Of a stretch of DNA of 12,937 nucleotides, positions 2,159 through 12,480 are shown piece by piece. Position numbers and translations under genes: made by a program. The DNA lies in the UHGV virus genome UHGV-0262016. One strand, 5' to 3'. Each line of letters opens with the position of its first letter. The stretch's first letter is position 1. This stretch comes from a virus. The notes under the pieces were generated by a model, which saw only the letters and a list, made by a program, of their open reading frames with translations, searched no databases and was not told the DNA's origin.

Positions 2159-2362
2159 TTACGGTGCTGGTTTAAGTCCTGCCGGGATTTCGTTATTGTC
2201 CATGTGAATAACTTTATCAACCGGATAACAGTTACCGGGAATTTTCTGTTCTGCTGCGGCAGCCATGCATTCTTTCATTGAACCGTAAATGTCAATAACC
2301 AGGTCAACAGGCTCGCCAGTATTAAGAAAAACAGTCAGAGTGAGGGCAATAGCAGTATTCAT
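2159..2362 (-). CDS. ydfD: Small protein with hydrophobic N-terminus (YdfD-like, putative lysis/membrane protein)
   Basis: ATG at 2362 overlaps the dicB stop (ATGA coupling); SD AAGGA 8 nt upstream. Product MNTAIALTLTVFLNTGEPVDLVIDIYGSMKECMAAAAEQKIPGNCYPVDKVIHMDNNEIPAGLKPAP (67 aa). The track's upstream ATG at 2416 has no usable SD. Symbol by position after dicB. Confidence 0.5.
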   Translation of the reverse strand: MNTAIALTLTVFLNTGEPVDLVIDIYGSMKECMAAAAEQKIPGNCYPVDKVIHMDNNEIPAGLKPAP

Positions 2363-2547
2363 TGCCAGTATCCTTTTTGCATCAGACGTAAACGGGCCAG
2401 CATTGAAACAATGCATATTTGATTTAATAACTCCCGTTCGTGTTTTCTCTTATTAATGGCATCTTCAGTAAATGCAGGGTTACTGATACTGACACCAATT
2501 TCAAAACAACCTTCAGACGTATTAACGTTTGGTAATAATGTTTCCAT
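2359..2547 (-). CDS. dicB: Cell division inhibitor DicB (62 aa)
   Basis: 62-aa ORF METLLPNVNTSEGCFEIGVSISNPAFTEDAINKRKHERELLNQICIVSMLARLRLMQKGYWQ closely matches my recollection of K-12 DicB (MKTLLPNVNTSEGCFEIGV...). SD GAGG 8 nt upstream of ATG at 2547. Lies directly downstream of a DicF-like RNA. Confidence 0.8.
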   Translation of the reverse strand: METLLPNVNTSEGCFEIGVSISNPAFTEDAINKRKHERELLNQICIVSMLARLRLMQKGYWQ

Positions 2548-2564: not shown

Positions 2565-2724
2565 TGAATTTTGTGATGCGGTGCCTGGTGCCTCCAGGTG
2601 ACGTTAACCAGTTAACAATTAACGCCGGATACAGGGAAACCCATAAACACCCGATACGGGGGAACTAATCGCTTTTTAACTGTTCCGCGTGCGCTGAGCC
2701 GCATTCACCGCATCACAAAATTCA
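2565..2724. repeat. Perfect 19-bp inverted repeat (TGAATTTTGTGATGCGGTG at 2565-2583; reverse complement at 2706-2724) enclosing 122 bp between the DicF-like terminator and the dicB ribosome-binding site
   Basis: Both arms read directly and are exact reverse complements. The enclosed segment contains smaller hairpins (CCTGG/CCAGG 2584-2598) and tandem GTTAAC hexamers (2603-2616). Confidence 0.9.
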
Positions 2725-2728
2725 CTTT

Positions 2729-2783
2729 AAAAAGGGCGGACATCAGCCAGCAATGAAACTGATGCCGCCAAAGGTACAAATCA
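2729..2783 (-). ncRNA. dicF: DicF-like small RNA with intrinsic terminator
   Basis: Minus-strand RNA 5'-UUGAUUUGUACCUUUGGCGGCAUCAGUUUCAUUGCUGGCUGAUGUCCGCCCUUUUU-3'. An 11-bp GC-rich stem with one bulge (plus coordinates 2734-2768) is followed by U5. It resembles the K-12 DicF sequence as I recall it (shared UUUGGCGG.AUCAGUUU and CCGCCCUUUUUAAAGUGAAUUUUGUGAUG). Sits immediately upstream of dicB as in Qin. The 5' end is approximate. Confidence 0.6.
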
Positions 2784-3110
2784 ACATGGAGTGTTGTAGC
2801 GGGGTTGTCACTTAAGCGTATGGTCAACCTGACAACCCGGTGTCCTCAACGGGGAAGGAATAACCCCGCCATACTTACCGCCGCGCCATTTCGCGGAGTG
2901 CCACAACCGGAAGCGCACGGTCGACGAAAATTTAACGACAGGCTATCTATGAACCAGCTACCTCGCCGTGCGCTTTCGCGTTATGGTCTGACTTTTCAGG
3001 GAAATATCCTTTCAGTAAACTGTCAGTGCCGGATGCTCACCCGTGTCCGGCGCACGCACTCCACCTCACCCGTGGAGAACTCCTTAATCACCAACCCTCA
3101 GGAGGGTGAA

Positions 3111-3386
3111 ATGTCGACTGAAAATGATGAAATCATTAACTCCCTGATACGCCAGATTAATAATTTTGATAAAGCATTGCAGCATGCTGCGGCGCGTAGC
3201 GATATAACTCTTTTAGCAATTTCATTTCTTGCATCTGTTATGGATAAAAATGAAGTCGTACGACAGAGTCTTGTTGATTATATCGACTCGCTTCAACCCG
3301 GCACTTTCAATCATGAGAGCTTCAATCATGAGAAAGAGCATGTTAAGTCTGTAATTAATTCTCTTATTTTGAATCAAAAGAATTAA
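3111..3386 (+). CDS. Hypothetical 91-aa protein, AT-rich, opposite strand to the surrounding operon (sieB-equivalent slot)
   Basis: ATG at 3111 with SD GGAGG 5 nt upstream. Product MSTENDEIINSLIRQINNFDKALQHAAARSDITLLAISFLASVMDKNEVVRQSLVDYIDSLQPGTFNHESFNHEKEHVKSVINSLILNQKN. The long in-frame extension in track ORF 2805..3386 is Arg-rich and GC-rich, so judged non-coding. No family recognised. Confidence 0.55.
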   Translation: MSTENDEIINSLIRQINNFDKALQHAAARSDITLLAISFLASVMDKNEVVRQSLVDYIDSLQPGTFNHESFNHEKEHVKSVINSLILNQKN

Positions 3387-3684
3387 TGCTTTTTGTTGCA
3401 AAGTAATTTTCAAGGGGTTCTATTCGAATCCCTTTCTTTTTCATTAACAAGCCAAACCCCTTATCAATGATGTCCATTAGTTCCAGGAAGTATTTTTCAT
3501 GTAAATCCTGGTTATCAGAGAGCTGCTTCTCTTCGTACAGACCGATAAAGGCACGACGCACGTTACCGGATATAGTATCGATGGTTTCTTTTTCTACGGT
3601 ACTCAGGTCAAGAGTCGCCAGTTGGGAACGAACTATATTCGCTGCCATTTCCTGGAATTGCATTGGTAAATCTTTAAATTCCAT
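3364..3684 (-). CDS. Hypothetical 106-aa protein, AT-rich; 3' end overlaps the convergent plus-strand gene by 23 bp
   Basis: ATG at 3684 with SD GAGG 6 nt upstream, 22 bp downstream of the ydfC-like stop. Product MEFKDLPMQFQEMAANIVRSQLATLDLSTVEKETIDTISGNVRRAFIGLYEEKQ... No family recognised. Confidence 0.5.
   Translation of the reverse strand: MEFKDLPMQFQEMAANIVRSQLATLDLSTVEKETIDTISGNVRRAFIGLYEEKQLSDNQDLHEKYFLELMDIIDKGFGLLMKKKGIRIEPLENYFATKSINSFDSK
3412..3442 (+). terminator. Intrinsic terminator for the plus-strand 91-aa gene
   Basis: AAGGGGTTC / GAATCCCTT stem (9 bp including one G-U pair), 5-nt loop, then TCTTTTTC. Lies inside the 3' end of the convergent minus-strand ORF. Confidence 0.55.
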
Positions 3685-3706
3685 TATTAGCCTCGTTGGT
3701 TAGCTA

Positions 3707-3925
3707 TTAACGCGGGTATGTAATCATTCTGGCAATGCTTAATGCCGCTGCTTTTTCCAGCCTAGTGATATCCTGCTCCAGAGCGGACAGATTTTCAGCC
3801 TGCTTAGCCCCGGCTTCATTGGCCCATTTCAGATCCTGCGCTGCATTAATTTTCTGGCGCATCCACTCATAAAGCTCATCATCGGTATAGTCTGGCGCGA
3901 TGATGACGGGTTCTCGTTTCTGCAT
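3707..3925 (-). CDS. ydfC: YdfC-like small protein (72 aa)
   Basis: ATG at 3925 with SD GAGG 7 nt upstream. Product MQKREPVIIAPDYTDDELYEWMRQKINAAQDLKWANEAGAKQAENLSALEQDITRLEKAAALSIARMITYPR. Length and position match K-12 Qin ydfC as recalled. Confidence 0.6.
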   Translation of the reverse strand: MQKREPVIIAPDYTDDELYEWMRQKINAAQDLKWANEAGAKQAENLSALEQDITRLEKAAALSIARMITYPR

Positions 3926-3954
3926 ACTGATTCCTCGCGGTGCTGTTTCGCTTA

Positions 3955-4083
3955 TCAGCCGCTAGATTTTGCCGAGCTGGAAAGCGCCTGTTTAAATTCG
4001 CTGAAGCTGAGAGTTTCTTCGCCTTCGGCAAGGCCTTCGAAGTATTCTTCGTAAGCCTTTTCCATGATTGTGTCGAAATCCAT
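3955..4083 (-). CDS. ydfB: YdfB-like small acidic protein (42 aa)
   Basis: Hand-translated ORF not in the track (below its length cutoff): MDFDTIMEKAYEEYFEGLAEGEETLSFSEFKQALSSSAKSSG, stop TGA at 3957..3955. SD GGTGA 5 nt upstream; ATG lies 1 nt after the upstream gene's stop. Length and order match Qin ydfB as recalled. Preferred over the overlapping track ORF 3879..4088. Confidence 0.5.
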   Translation of the reverse strand: MDFDTIMEKAYEEYFEGLAEGEETLSFSEFKQALSSSAKSSG

Positions 4084-4084
4084 A

Positions 4085-4240
4085 TCACTCACCTGAGTTT
4101 CTTTCCAGCCAGCGACGGGCACCATTTTCGGTTTTAAACGTTTTGCTTTTGGTATACGTCATCGCGGTGAACGTGCCGTCTTGGTTGGGAAACACGCCGT
4201 ACACCAGAGATTCGTTGTTGCCAAGAACGATAGTATCCAT
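4085..4240 (-). CDS. ydfA: YdfA-like small protein (51 aa); an alternative upstream start at 4321 would give 78 aa
   Basis: Internal ATG at 4240 with SD GAGG 5 nt upstream gives MDTIVLGNNESLVYGVFPNQDGTFTAMTYTKSKTFKTENGARRWLERNSGE (51 aa), matching the recalled ydfA length. The upstream ATG at 4321 (SD GAGG 9 nt) cannot be excluded. Confidence 0.55.
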   Translation of the reverse strand: MDTIVLGNNESLVYGVFPNQDGTFTAMTYTKSKTFKTENGARRWLERNSGE

Positions 4241-4421
4241 GCTGACCTCATTTCCCCTTAACGCCGGGGTAGCGGAACAAAAACCTGCTGCATAGTTATT
4301 AAAGTTGAACCCTGCCGTCATGTTCTTACGCCTCGGGCTGGCTACTTAACCCCTGACCACTGCCTGGTAACTCGAAGTATTGCCCTGCGTTCTGTGGGGC
4401 GGGGTGGGTTGGTATGGAAAA

Positions 4422-4558: not shown

Positions 4559-5035
4559 TTAAGTTCCTGTCTTGGTGATGTTCTGGCTTTTCCGTTTTGA
4601 TTCTTGATTTTTCAAATAGTTACCTACCTTCATTTCCATTGCGGCAATGTAGGCGCGAACGTCATGATCAACCCAACTAGGCTCCGTAGCATTTCCAGAT
4701 AAGAGGAAAGCTACAATTGCTCTTTTTTCATCAGAGGCGGCTTGATAAAGGCTGTTTATGTCTAAAAGTTCACTTTTTGTATTTGAAGTGGATGGGGTTG
4801 GTATGGGGTATTCGTTAAGCCCCCAATGCTCTGGACCAACCACATCAGAAAAGAAACGCCATAGTTCTGGAAGTTTATCTTTACTTATCGAACCTTTCTT
4901 AATCCAGTCATGGATTGATGGTGGTTGGACTTTGAAATGACGTGCGATCTCCGCCTTTGATTTGACGGCTCCTGATGCAATTTTTTTGTTAATGGCCTGC
5001 TCTATCGCTCGGCCCAAGTCTTTACCACTAAGCAT
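4559..5035 (-). CDS. racR: Prophage repressor, HTH (XRE/CI-like), 158 aa, RacR-like
   Basis: 158-aa ORF with an HTH-like segment (SKAEIARHFKVQPPSIHDWIKKG); SD GGAG 11 nt upstream. Divergent from a cro-like gene and flanked by operator palindromes. The 158/107/141-aa trio matches the Rac racR-ydaS-ydaT layout as recalled; symbol by synteny and length. Confidence 0.65.
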   Translation of the reverse strand: MLSGKDLGRAIEQAINKKIASGAVKSKAEIARHFKVQPPSIHDWIKKGSISKDKLPELWRFFSDVVGPEHWGLNEYPIPTPSTSNTKSELLDINSLYQAASDEKRAIVAFLLSGNATEPSWVDHDVRAYIAAMEMKVGNYLKNQESKRKSQNITKTGT

Positions 5036-5063
5036 TGCTTAATAGTCTCCTATGCGCATCGCG

Positions 5064-5132
5064 TTAGGCAATCCCTATGTTTAGTGCATTAGGCATAGCC
5101 TATTGACAATTGCGTTAGGCGAAGCCTAATAT
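5064..5132 (+). promoter_or_regulatory. OR/PR region: three operators (OR3 5064-5078, OR2 5089-5103, OR1 5115-5129) and the rightward promoter
   Basis: OR1 TTAGGCgaaGCCTAA is a perfect palindrome; OR2 TTAGGCataGCCTAT; OR3 TTAGGCaatCCCTAT is degenerate. Centres are 25-26 bp apart. -35 TTGACA 5103-5108, 18-bp spacer, -10 TAATAT 5127-5132; OR1 overlaps the spacer and -10. Confidence 0.65.
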
Positions 5133-5159
5133 CATTGTGTGTTTTTTGGAGTTCATTCG

Positions 5160-5483
5160 ATGAAAAAAGAGAACTATTCATTCAAACGGGCTTGTGCTGT
5201 TGTCGGTGGGCAATCAGCAATGGCTAGGCTTTTAGGTGTATCTCCTCCAAGCGTAAATCAATGGATCAAAGGTGTACGTCAGTTGCCTGCTGAGAGATGT
5301 CCTGCGATTGAACGAGCAACAAAAGGTGGTGTCCTGTGTGAAGAACTTCGTCCTGATGTTGATTGGTCATACTTACGACGCCCGTCATGTTATTCGCAGA
5401 ATATGTCGATGAAGCAACCAAATGACGAAAACGATCATACCCGAAGCATCAAGAGGCAAATGATTCATGAAAATCAAACATGA
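5160..5483 (+). CDS. ydaS: Cro/CII-like HTH protein (YdaS-like)
   Basis: ATG at 5160 with SD GGAG 8 nt upstream, about 28 nt after the PR -10. HTH-like GGQSAMARLLGVSPPSVNQWIKG. Divergent from the repressor. Confidence 0.6.
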   Translation: MKKENYSFKRACAVVGGQSAMARLLGVSPPSVNQWIKGVRQLPAERCPAIERATKGGVLCEELRPDVDWSYLRRPSCYSQNMSMKQPNDENDHTRSIKRQMIHENQT

Positions 5484-5892
5484 GCACATCCGCATGGCGA
5501 TGAATGCCTGGGCGCGTCCGGATGGTGAAAAAGTTCCGGTAGCCGAGATAACCAGGGTTTATTTCGAGCTGGGCATGACGTTTCCTGAGCTGTACGACGA
5601 CAGCCATCCGGAAGCCCTGGCCCGCAATACTCAGAAAATTTTCCGCTGGGTAGAGAAAGACACCCCTGATGCTGTTGAAAAAATTCAGGCGTTGTTACCA
5701 GCGATCGAAAAAGCAATGCCGCCTCTGCTGGTGGCCCGAATGCGCAGCCACAGTTCAGCCTTTTTTCGGGAACTGGTGGAGACGCGGGAACGACTGGTGA
5801 GAGACGCTGATGATTTTGTCGCAGTGGCGATCGCTGGTTTCAATCAGATGAATCGTGGTGGCCCGGCGGGAAATGCCGTGGTCGTTCATTAA
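5467..5892 (+). CDS. ydaT: YdaT-like protein (141 aa)
   Basis: ATG at 5467 overlaps the end of the previous gene; SD GAGG 10 nt upstream. Length and position as in Rac ydaT. Symbol by synteny. Confidence 0.55.
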   Translation: MKIKHEHIRMAMNAWARPDGEKVPVAEITRVYFELGMTFPELYDDSHPEALARNTQKIFRWVEKDTPDAVEKIQALLPAIEKAMPPLLVARMRSHSSAFFRELVETRERLVRDADDFVAVAIAGFNQMNRGGPAGNAVVVH

Positions 5893-11087: not shown

Positions 11088-11423
11088 GAAGGAAACAAAA
11101 CAGAAACAACAATTGCCGTTACCTGTTGTTACCATGGCAAGTAAACGCATCTCAGGCGAGCGCATTGCACCGTTCTGACGCAGATAAATTAGCCTGGATA
11201 GATGGTGCTGGCAATAAAAAATAGCGTTTTCTTATCGGTGTCGGTAAGATTGCTGCGGGTGCTTGAGGCTGTCTGCCTCGGGCATGCCACTGTAAGGCAG
11301 GCAGAGAAAAGCCCCAGTTAACATTACGCGTCCGGCAAGACGCTTAACATTAATCTGAGGCTCCCTATGCATGACAACATCAGGTTAGCCTCTTACGTGC
11401 CGAAAGGCAAGGAGAAGCAGGCT

Positions 11424-11579
11424 ATGAAGCAGCAAAAGGCGATGTTAATCGCCCTGATCGTCATCTGTTTAACCGTCATAGTGACGGCACTGGTAACGAG
11501 GAAAGACCTCTGCGAGGTACGAATCCGAACCGGCCAGACGGAGGTCGCTGTCTTCGTAGACTACGAATCTAGAGAGTAA
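11424..11579 (+). CDS. hokD: Hok/Gef-family type I toxin (51 aa), HokD/RelF-like
   Basis: Product MKQQKAMLIALIVICLTVIVTALVTRKDLCEVRIRTGQTEVAVFVDYESRE is a Hok-family signature, nearly identical to HokD/RelF as recalled. SD GGAG 9 nt upstream. An in-frame upstream ATG at 11367 (SD GAGG 6 nt upstream) gives a 70-aa mok-like extended frame. Confidence 0.8.
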   Translation: MKQQKAMLIALIVICLTVIVTALVTRKDLCEVRIRTGQTEVAVFVDYESRE

Positions 11580-11733: not shown

Positions 11734-11796
11734 TATTTTGCATCAAATTTGGTGCATGGCTTTGCCAATAATCGGAAAACAAAAGGACTCATTAGT

Positions 11797-11976
11797 ATGA
11801 GCTGCCCACTCAAAAAACACACGCGGTTGAGTATTCCGCCTCGCGATAAAAGCGTTGTGGCAGTCCCTCGCCCAGCGATTGATGAAAACTGCGCACATCG
11901 TGAACAAGTGAAAAATGCTTTTGATTTCGGTTTTTCTCGTTATGAGAAAGCCATGGAAGAACTTTCAAAAGTGTAA
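11797..11976 (+). CDS. Small ORF upstream of the Doc-family toxin; candidate antitoxin of non-Phd type
   Basis: ATG at 11797 with SD AAGGA 9 nt upstream. Product MSCPLKKHTRLSIPPRDKSVVAVPRPAIDENCAHREQVKNAFDFGFSRYEKAMEELSKV (59 aa). Ends about 20 nt before the toxin start. Role inferred only from its position. Confidence 0.45.
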   Translation: MSCPLKKHTRLSIPPRDKSVVAVPRPAIDENCAHREQVKNAFDFGFSRYEKAMEELSKV

Positions 11977-11994
11977 TGATGGGTATTGTGCTCT

Positions 11995-12480
11995 ATGGCT
12001 GAGATTGTTGAAGGAGTGCATTACCTTACGGTTGATGATCTTGTTGAAATCAATCGTTCCCTAATTGAATTACAGACGCCAGATGAGCCCGTTGGTGTTC
12101 TGAGTCCAGATAACTTAAGTTCTTCTCAGGCCCGTCCCAGCATGGTTCGATGGTATGAACAGACTAATGACATGTTTGTACTGGCATCGGTATTGATTGA
12201 AAGTCTGATTCAGAATCACCCGTTTGCTAATGCGAACAAACGAACAGCTATGATGGCTGGTTACGTCTTCTTGTTGTTGAATGGCTATGAGTTAACAGCA
12301 CCAGGCGATGAAATCGTGGAAATGGCAGAGGGACTGGCCTGCAAAATCTATACTCGAGAAGATCTCGAGAACTGGTTGTGTTATTGGTCTCGCGCGTATG
12401 ACAGCCGGGAATTATGTAAAACAGGCGCAACTATTGTTTTGTATGAAACTATCAAGCTTAAAATAGAACAGCAAAACTAA
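11995..12480 (+). CDS. Doc-family (Fic/Doc fold) toxin, 161 aa
   Basis: Contains the Doc signature H-x-F-x-N-A-N-K-R (HPFANANKRTAMMAGYVFLLLNGYEL); the N-terminal segment (YLTVDDLVEINRSLIE) is also Doc-like. Start taken as ATG 11995; a TTG at 11986 is possible. Confidence 0.75.
   Translation: MAEIVEGVHYLTVDDLVEINRSLIELQTPDEPVGVLSPDNLSSSQARPSMVRWYEQTNDMFVLASVLIESLIQNHPFANANKRTAMMAGYVFLLLNGYELTAPGDEIVEMAEGLACKIYTREDLENWLCYWSRAYDSRELCKTGATIVLYETIKLKIEQQN

Follow-up and report, generated by a model that had tools for sequence, protein, structure and literature searches.

A probable moron-type cassette nested in the 3′ end of an accessory early-left gene in a mosaic lambdoid prophage

In Rac, lambda, and P22, the superinfection exclusion gene sieB opposes the early-left operon. 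The Rac prophage of K-12 carries racR, ydaG, and ydaF (DUF1391) on the minus strand, sieB on the plus strand, and then the kilS small RNA (sRNA) and kilR again on the minus strand, with the 3′ ends of sieB and ydaF overlapping by 4 bp. The moron, a concept of Hendrix and Juhala, is an extra gene that is autonomous, has a promoter and a terminator of its own, and deviates in composition. In Qin, the dicBF operon has the order ydfA-ydfB-ydfC-dicF-dicB-ydfD and contains a 'long untranslated region' that has been described (PMC5069750). The 12,937-nucleotide stretch of virus genome UHGV-0262016 analyzed here (the window) corresponds to the early region of a mosaic lambdoid prophage of the Escherichia coli type. 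Its genes run RacR, DUF1391, ydfB, ydfC, and ORF106 on the minus strand, p91 on the plus strand, and a DicF-like RNA and dicB on the minus strand; ORF106 (106 residues) and p91 (91 residues) are convergent and are the subject of this report. The original prediction had seen in them an AT-rich accessory insertion in the position and orientation of sieB, and both points stand: the Rac layout is the same, and the insertion is present or absent among near-identical prophages. We consider it probable, though well short of certain, that p91 is a moron-type cassette nested in the 3′ end of ORF106, within the ydfC–dicF spacer, and that the two genes are separable elements.

Both open reading frames (ORFs) are present where the original prediction had drawn them, and both are RefSeq coding sequences in 99%-identical prophages, each annotated as a hypothetical protein (ORF106, WP_000394534.1; p91, WP_000102678.1). 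ORF106 spans 3364–3684 on the minus strand, starts with ATG, and has the Shine-Dalgarno (SD) sequence GAGG, which reads cctc at 3691–3694 on the plus strand. P91 spans 3111–3386 on the plus strand, stop codon included, and its SD sequence, AGGAGGG at 3100–3106, ends four bases before the ATG at 3111. The predicted SD sequence and the predicted 23-bp overlap of the two 3′ ends (3364–3386) are thus both found. The distance from ydfC to the DicF-like RNA is 924 bp, against 340 bp in K-12 Qin. An earlier figure of about 900 bp of extra DNA has to be reduced to about 590 bp, since 340 bp are already present in Qin; the full range is ~584–594 bp. Alignment with loci of the empty K-12/689R5 type, and specifically with the empty-slot phage vB_EcoS-689R5, places the whole extra segment of ~594 bp at ~3093–3686, where the empty-slot junction reads ...ACCAACC followed directly by TTAGCTTCGTTGG. 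We looked at the junctions for a target-site duplication or flanking repeats pointing to transposition and found neither. The 594-bp segment is the GC minimum of the window: the plus ORF has 35.5% GC and the minus ORF 38.0%, compared with 54.8% in the left flank and 49.3% in ydfC, in line with the earlier statement that both genes are AT-richer than their surroundings.

ORF106 is a full-length member of phrog_6937 (E 2.2e-69, residues 1–106), an Escherichia prophage family built from a nearly invariant, helical N-terminal domain of ~55 residues, MEFKDLP...NVRRAFIGLYEEK, and variable, interchangeable C-termini. The C-termini sort into at least four classes: A (106, 109, and 124 residues), B (133), C (122), and D (135; found in PPompW and phage Evi). 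The 5426 complete E. coli genomes were scanned for p91 and for the minus-gene core, and ~240 IMG/VR and reference loci were gathered with the minus protein and two variants of it as queries. The flanks of the slot are present in more than 3000 genomes. Between the same flanks the slot is either empty (K-12 Qin, 689R5), occupied by the minus gene alone, or occupied by the minus gene and a convergent gene; in a spread E. coli sample queried with the joined flanks, the empty K-12-like state was commonest and the one- and two-gene states were a minority. The presence/absence comparison proposed with the original prediction therefore returned empty, minus-only, and several two-gene states, that is, a non-uniform distribution. 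DNA of the class-A minus core occurs in 736 of the 5426 genomes at ≥80% coverage and in 932 at any coverage. P91 occurs in 198 (163 records at ≥99% identity), with its ORF intact. A combined p91 and ORF106 query at ≥80% coverage likewise found 198 genomes, and because the two counts agree, p91 seems invariably to adjoin the minus gene. The p91 cassette is found in prophages with different repressors and different neighboring insertions; the natural lysogens NCTC86 and STEC005, for example, have it at 99% identity. Four copies lie on records classed as large plasmids (H50, NZ_AP026904.1, 237 kb; H55, NZ_JBVDMR010000004.1, 217 kb).

The nesting of p91 in the minus gene emerges from loci in which the latter stands alone. 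In L072, L084, and L085, the minus gene is present by itself in its 124-residue form and adjoins the conserved flank. The window is homologous to L072 over 2700–3074 and 3368–3999, and homology to the 124-residue form stops at 3368. Alignment with this minus-only locus thus delimits a p91-specific plus-strand segment of 293 bp (3075–3367), which substitutes for 64 bp of minus-only loci, including the last 18 codons of the 124-residue form; compared with that commoner form, the 106-residue form has a short tail owing to the p91 junction. Conversely, p91 takes its final six codons and stop from older minus-gene sequence, of which they are the antisense, as the L072 alignment shows. Because the cassette junction sits inside the 3′ end of the minus gene, the short tail of ORF106 and the 23-bp overlap are both by-products of where that junction falls. 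In L061 and L072, the stop codon of the 124-residue minus gene lies within a near-palindrome, TTAATCATTAA; these 11 nt also occur in the p73 cassette, where both convergent genes take their stop codons from them.

P91 is one of at least eight alternative convergent small genes found on the plus strand of the slot. Besides p91, they include p91b, a divergent allele 79% identical to p91; p92 (phrog_18692); p73 (phrog_7249); p77 (phrog_10348); p104 (phrog_8894); p61; p148 (phrog_6315); and p76, a 5′-truncated p92. Five genes, p91, p91b, p92, p73, and p77, begin at the SD-proximal ATG of an identical conserved junction, ...ccttaatYaccaaccctcaggagggtgaaATG, which contains the p91 SD sequence. The C-terminal classes of the minus protein and the plus genes do not pair one-to-one: class A is accompanied by p91, p73, p148, a p73 remnant (L060, L079), or no partner, and class B by p92, p61, or none. 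Apart from p91 and p92, the slot proteins are mutually unrelated. These two align by hhalign over 78 colinear columns at 31% identity (E 1.1e-3, probability 21%), and p91 weakly matches the p92 family, phrog_18692, by hmmscan (E 0.022, residues 9–88); p92 was not recovered in a search of 1.84 billion representatives with p91. From these alignments, p91 and p92 are probably distant homologues. Profile scans covered both window proteins and six alternative cassette proteins. The sequence of p148 (L230, ~454–900 nt downstream of the minus-gene start, on the opposite strand) reads as containing hydrophobic, transmembrane (TM)-like stretches, and the protein weakly matches a SLATT-type profile (PADLOC RTasSLATT, E 0.002); nothing rose above noise in Pfam, NCBIfam, or PADLOC for the other alternatives, which leaves p148 as the only slot occupant with a hint of a defense-effector fold.

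Several features identify p91 as a protein-coding gene. Compared with the divergent allele p91b (43 nucleotide differences), the ratio of nonsynonymous to synonymous substitution (dN/dS) is 0.28 in its own frame, versus 0.65 and 1.04 off-frame. The gene carries the 15-bp tandem duplication noticed in the original prediction, which is exact and in frame (FNHES/FNHEK, plus strand, 3306–3333): the repeat TTCAATCATGAGA lies at 3306–3318 and 3321–3333, with 15-nt spacing, and is too short for Tandem Repeats Finder, whose run gave no report of it. The copy number of the FNHES repeat is polymorphic among loci, at one, two, or three, always in frame, and indels and repeat variation in p91 as a whole were seen only in frame. 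Because of the low in-frame dN/dS and the in-frame repeat variation, we take p91 to be, as judged by this comparison of alleles, a real coding gene under purifying selection. A longer in-frame ORF extends upstream (TTG at 2805 or ATG at 2950 to 3386; 145 residues in some records) and was rejected as the true gene: a TGA interrupts it in the sequences of L087 and L061, and the ATG at 3111 is therefore the p91 start. A hairpin sequestering the p91 SD sequence is not significant (z = −0.35). The protein is acidic (pI 5.4), and a 19-residue Kyte-Doolittle scan reached a maximum hydropathy of 1.43 and revealed no TM segment. An AlphaFold2 (AF2) model of p91 has four helices and is of the soluble type, at a low-confidence predicted local distance difference test (pLDDT) score of 64.

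The minus gene is an ordinary accessory member of the leftward early operon. The first ~55 residues of ORF106 also match phrog_1363, 2151, 9419, and 33007, and its N-terminal domain is shared with the 135-residue proteins of PPompW and Evi and with ORF16 of phage P13374. Within the window, 3572–3684 on the minus strand encodes the first ~37 residues of this domain, and rightward of 3572 the DNA matches the PPompW cassette. In 933W-like Shiga toxin (Stx) phages such as P13374, the domain is found downstream of exo, ssb, and DUF2303, with no convergent partner. A profile search with the N-terminal domain returned short Escherichia hypothetical proteins only, and a GTDB genome scan found E. albertii only. 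ORF106 has no Pfam, NCBIfam, or PADLOC match above noise and no Protein Data Bank (PDB) sequence match; its AF2 model (pLDDT 68, low confidence) has three to four helices, with residues 97–106 disordered. The original prediction had recognized no family for either protein and had proposed profile and structure searches as a check. Once run, these agree with it as regards Pfam, NCBIfam, and PADLOC and give no known function for p91, but they do place ORF106 in phrog_6937 and give p91 a weak match to phrog_18692. In L156, a class-A minus gene enters unrelated sequence after ~78 residues, and on the opposite strand lies a 150-residue ORF that looks like IS1 InsB; if so, loss of the minus gene can occur at no obvious cost.

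The right-hand boundary of p91 transcription would be set inside its neighbor. A plus-strand intrinsic terminator at 3412–3442, within ORF106 codons KKKGIRIEPLEN, consists of a 9-bp stem with a 5-nt loop (3412–3434) and a T-run, with TCTTTTTC following the stem. On the plus strand, it folds at −11.6 kcal/mol (z = −3.6) with the tail UCUUUUUC; on the minus strand, the predicted hairpin is weaker and the U-run is absent, so that the element is predicted to act in one direction, on the plus strand only. The terminator that the original prediction had assigned to p91 is thus real in form and strand, and the same hairpin is present in the p73 cassette. As far as fold prediction goes, it should leave leftward transcription to DicF and dicB unobstructed.

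These elements can be combined into a model. ORF106, an accessory early-left gene, would be translated from the leftward transcript through its own SD sequence. P91, a cassette antisense to the operon, would encode a small, acidic, soluble, all-helical protein; it would be read into the 3′ end of ORF106 and stop at the one-way terminator there. By analogy with sieB in Rac, lambda, and P22, p91 is probably expressed in the lysogen, while RacR holds the leftward operon off; after induction, convergent leftward transcription would override or silence it. Its position suggests a role in exclusion or defense, in which the product might act through protein binding in phage–phage or phage–host conflict, and ORF106 would not be needed as its partner.

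A number of observations weigh against this assignment. No sigma-70-like promoter scoring at least 9/12 lies upstream of p91; the sole candidate is a weak one, TTTTCA-17-TAAACT, at 2993–3021 on the plus strand (8/12). A weaker form of the terminator hairpin can be read from the sequences of minus-gene-only loci, and because a copy exists there without any plus gene, the hairpin may not have evolved for p91. P91 has no match in Pfam, NCBIfam, PADLOC, or a PDB sequence search (both proteins scanned), other than a single PADLOC hit to BrxA (E 0.014, 12.7 bits; PADLOC-DB 2.0). Foldseek against the PDB with the p91 and ORF106 models returned generic helical bundles alone, at E above 0.4. A phmmer search of p91 against the 1.84 billion representatives found itself, fragments, and one weak 39-bit match to a 1168-residue protein, and otherwise no relative outside Escherichia-type prophages. 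Among 50,697 deposited phage genomes, neither p91 nor p92 occurs, and the two could be decaying cargo of cryptic prophages. P91 was never seen without ORF106, and the pairing of the probable homologues p91 and p92 with different C-terminal classes may reflect some functional coupling. A literature search on the RefSeq accessions of p91 and ORF106 and on ydfC, dicF, moron, and sieB hotspots found nothing on these genes.

The constant company of ORF106 and the class-specific pairing figure in a rival explanation, close to the original prediction of a single toxin/antitoxin-like module: ORF106 and p91 would form an obligate two-gene unit, toxin/antitoxin-like or an effector/immunity pair, coupled by the convergent overlap. 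The constant adjacency fits this, as do the tendency of the C-terminal classes to have their own partners (A with p91 or p73, B with p92, C with p104, D with p77) and the recurrence of 3′ overlaps, of 11, 23, 32, 41, and 77 nt; the distant likeness of p91 and p92, perhaps extending to the C-terminal parts of classes A and B, could record the joint divergence of an ancestral pair. The adjacency, however, is structural, given a cassette junction located within the 3′ end of the minus gene, and the numbers are asymmetric: the minus core, in 736–932 genomes against 198 for p91, is far commoner and often stands alone or beside unrelated partners. Both class A and class B switch partners or lack one, and the relatives of the N-terminal domain in Stx phages have none. 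Nor do the proteins match toxin-antitoxin (TA) or defense profiles, and convergent genes would be expected to act in different states, lysogenic and lytic, unlike cotranscribed TA pairs. We therefore regard an obligate pair as improbable, with an uneven distribution, partners that can be exchanged, a convergent layout, and no family matches all speaking against a fixed toxin/antitoxin pair in particular.

Another possibility is that p91, as a protein or through convergent transcription, is a cis or trans regulator that tunes ORF106, DicF, and DicB in lysogens, with consequences for division inhibition and phage receptors. DicF and DicB affect cell division and phage receptors (PMC5069750, PMC6832061). 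P91 is indeed antisense inside a dicBF-type transcript, between ydfC and DicF, its transcript would be complementary to the 3′ end of ORF106, and the terminator halts plus-strand transcription ahead of ydfC while sparing leftward transcription. We nonetheless judge such a role unlikely: selection on the coding frame indicates that the protein matters and not RNA alone, at least seven mutually unrelated proteins in the same place fit diverse cargo better, and an operon whose slot is most often empty can do without a regulator of this kind. That the plus ORF has lost its function or is a remnant in decay, with only the minus gene of consequence, seems to us least credible of all and quite improbable. 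It would account for the missing convincing promoter, the narrow distribution and absence from isolated phages, and the truncated or deleted plus genes seen elsewhere (the p73 remnant in L060 and L079; p76). Against it stand an in-frame dN/dS of 0.28 over 43 substitutions against 0.65–1.04 out of frame, a strong and correctly spaced SD sequence, repeat variation confined to the frame, and an ORF intact in 198 genomes, with ≥99% identity in 163 records.

The reading of p91 as a moron-type cassette can be extended to the slot as a whole. The ydfC–dicF spacer might be a dedicated socket, with the conserved SD-ATG junction on one side and the minus-gene 3′ end and its one-way terminator on the other, taking interchangeable small anti-phage or exclusion proteins expressed in the lysogen; p91 and p92 would then be a new soluble exclusion family, and the variable C-terminal part of the neighboring minus gene would be the cognate counter-factor, in the manner of SieB and Esc, giving self-immunity upon induction. 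We offer this extended scheme as speculation that is unlikely to hold. Should the occupants prove to be lysogen-expressed exclusion or defense proteins, the slot, which a large share of E. coli genomes contain and which also occurs in prophages of enterohemorrhagic E. coli, would offer a compact and easily mined hotspot where single, very small genes provide anti-phage functions. At present, what it mainly shows, and cleanly, is how modules are exchanged at fixed junctions of lambdoid early regions, and it adds a set of small ORFan proteins: a real yet ordinary variable spot in an E. coli prophage.

The surroundings of the slot are as follows. The dicBF-type order DUF1391, ydfC, DicF-like RNA, DicB, and DUF1482 runs along one strand. 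Upstream of ORF106 in the leftward operon, all on the minus strand, lie the DUF1391 gene (4085–4321), a ydfB-like ORF (3955–4125), and ydfC (3707–3925), the last identified as an ORF with RefSeq and PHROG (phrog_1744) matches. Downstream of the slot, the GC-rich conserved untranslated flank of the dicBF-type operon (2783–3092, minus strand), which holds the weak promoter candidate, leads to the DicF-like sRNA with its terminator hairpin (2734–2782, minus strand), then to dicB (2359–2547, minus strand; PF05358, E 2e-38), and beyond it to a DUF1482/ydfD-like gene identified by Pfam on the same strand. The DicF-like RNA named in the original prediction is matched by Rfam (38.7 bits, E 1.4e-6), but because the score falls below the gathering score of 48, it is a diverged DicF allele. 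The adjoining stretch, 2570–2722, gives a weak STnc100 match of 34 bits (gathering score 47).

Within ydfC, a terminator-like plus-strand hairpin at 3730–3747 (TGGCAATGCTTAATGCCG followed by CTGCTTTTTC) is kept in all slot states, with counterparts in L002 (3375–3392) and L087 (2455–2438); it could halt antisense transcripts of cassettes without a terminator of their own, such as p92 and p77. In the p91-bearing prophage of E. coli STEC005 (L001, 1852–3190), the interval from dicB to the DicF region has gained a Rha-family regulator gene and, on the plus strand, a DUF1883 gene, which makes it a second variable slot of the operon. To the right, the repressor RacR (4559–5035, minus strand) is 92% identical to K-12 RacR and is followed by YdaS- and YdaT-family genes on the opposite strand, so that 4559–5892 is Rac-type immunity beside a Qin/dicBF-type left operon, a clear mosaic joint between two types of K-12 cryptic prophage. 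Farther away, a hok/sok type I toxin-antitoxin locus occupies 11257–11579: the sok RNA (RF01794, 109.6 bits; 11257–11429, plus strand) overlaps a Hok/Gef ORF ending at 11579 (PF01848, E 4e-23). Just before the gene for a 164-residue Fic/DOC-family protein (11986–12480; PF02661, E 7e-12) lies a 75-residue ORF (11749–11976) that Pfam does not match; this ORF could encode an antitoxin or partner of the Fic/DOC protein.

Set against the described systems, the locus combines familiar and divergent traits. P91 has the same position and orientation as sieB, although the gene it meets, ORF106, lies downstream of DUF1391-ydfB-ydfC; in both prophages an sRNA and a division inhibitor come next (kilS and kilR in Rac, the DicF-like RNA and dicB here). 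A membrane protein of larger size, SieB has 162 residues in Rac, whereas p91 has 91 residues and is soluble, acidic, and devoid of a TM segment; homology between them was not detected, with no Pfam hit for p91 and a BLASTP E of 1.8 against Rac SieB. With morons, p91 shares presence or absence between near-identical neighbors, a deviant low GC content, and an SD sequence and Rho-independent terminator. Morons have their own promoter, whereas the best p91 candidate is the 8/12 sequence at 2993–3021, and the p91 cassette is only ~293 bp long and borrows its last six codons, stop, and terminator from the antisense strand of its neighbor. Type II toxin-antitoxin systems resemble p91 and ORF106, which are likewise small neighboring prophage genes whose ends overlap. 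Those pairs are cotranscribed, whereas p91 and ORF106 are convergent, the minus gene is often alone, the partners are exchangeable, and no family is matched. The window has a gene order and a conserved untranslated spacer like those of the Qin dicBF operon (PMC5069750), although the spacer is 340 bp in K-12 and 924 bp here, owing to the two extra genes, and the Rac-type immunity region (RacR, YdaS, YdaT) departs from the dicBF/Qin type of the rest. Neither the literature searched nor the profile libraries describe these proteins, but their setting is of a well-known kind: a mosaic lambdoid early-left operon with a moron-type cassette where sieB would lie.

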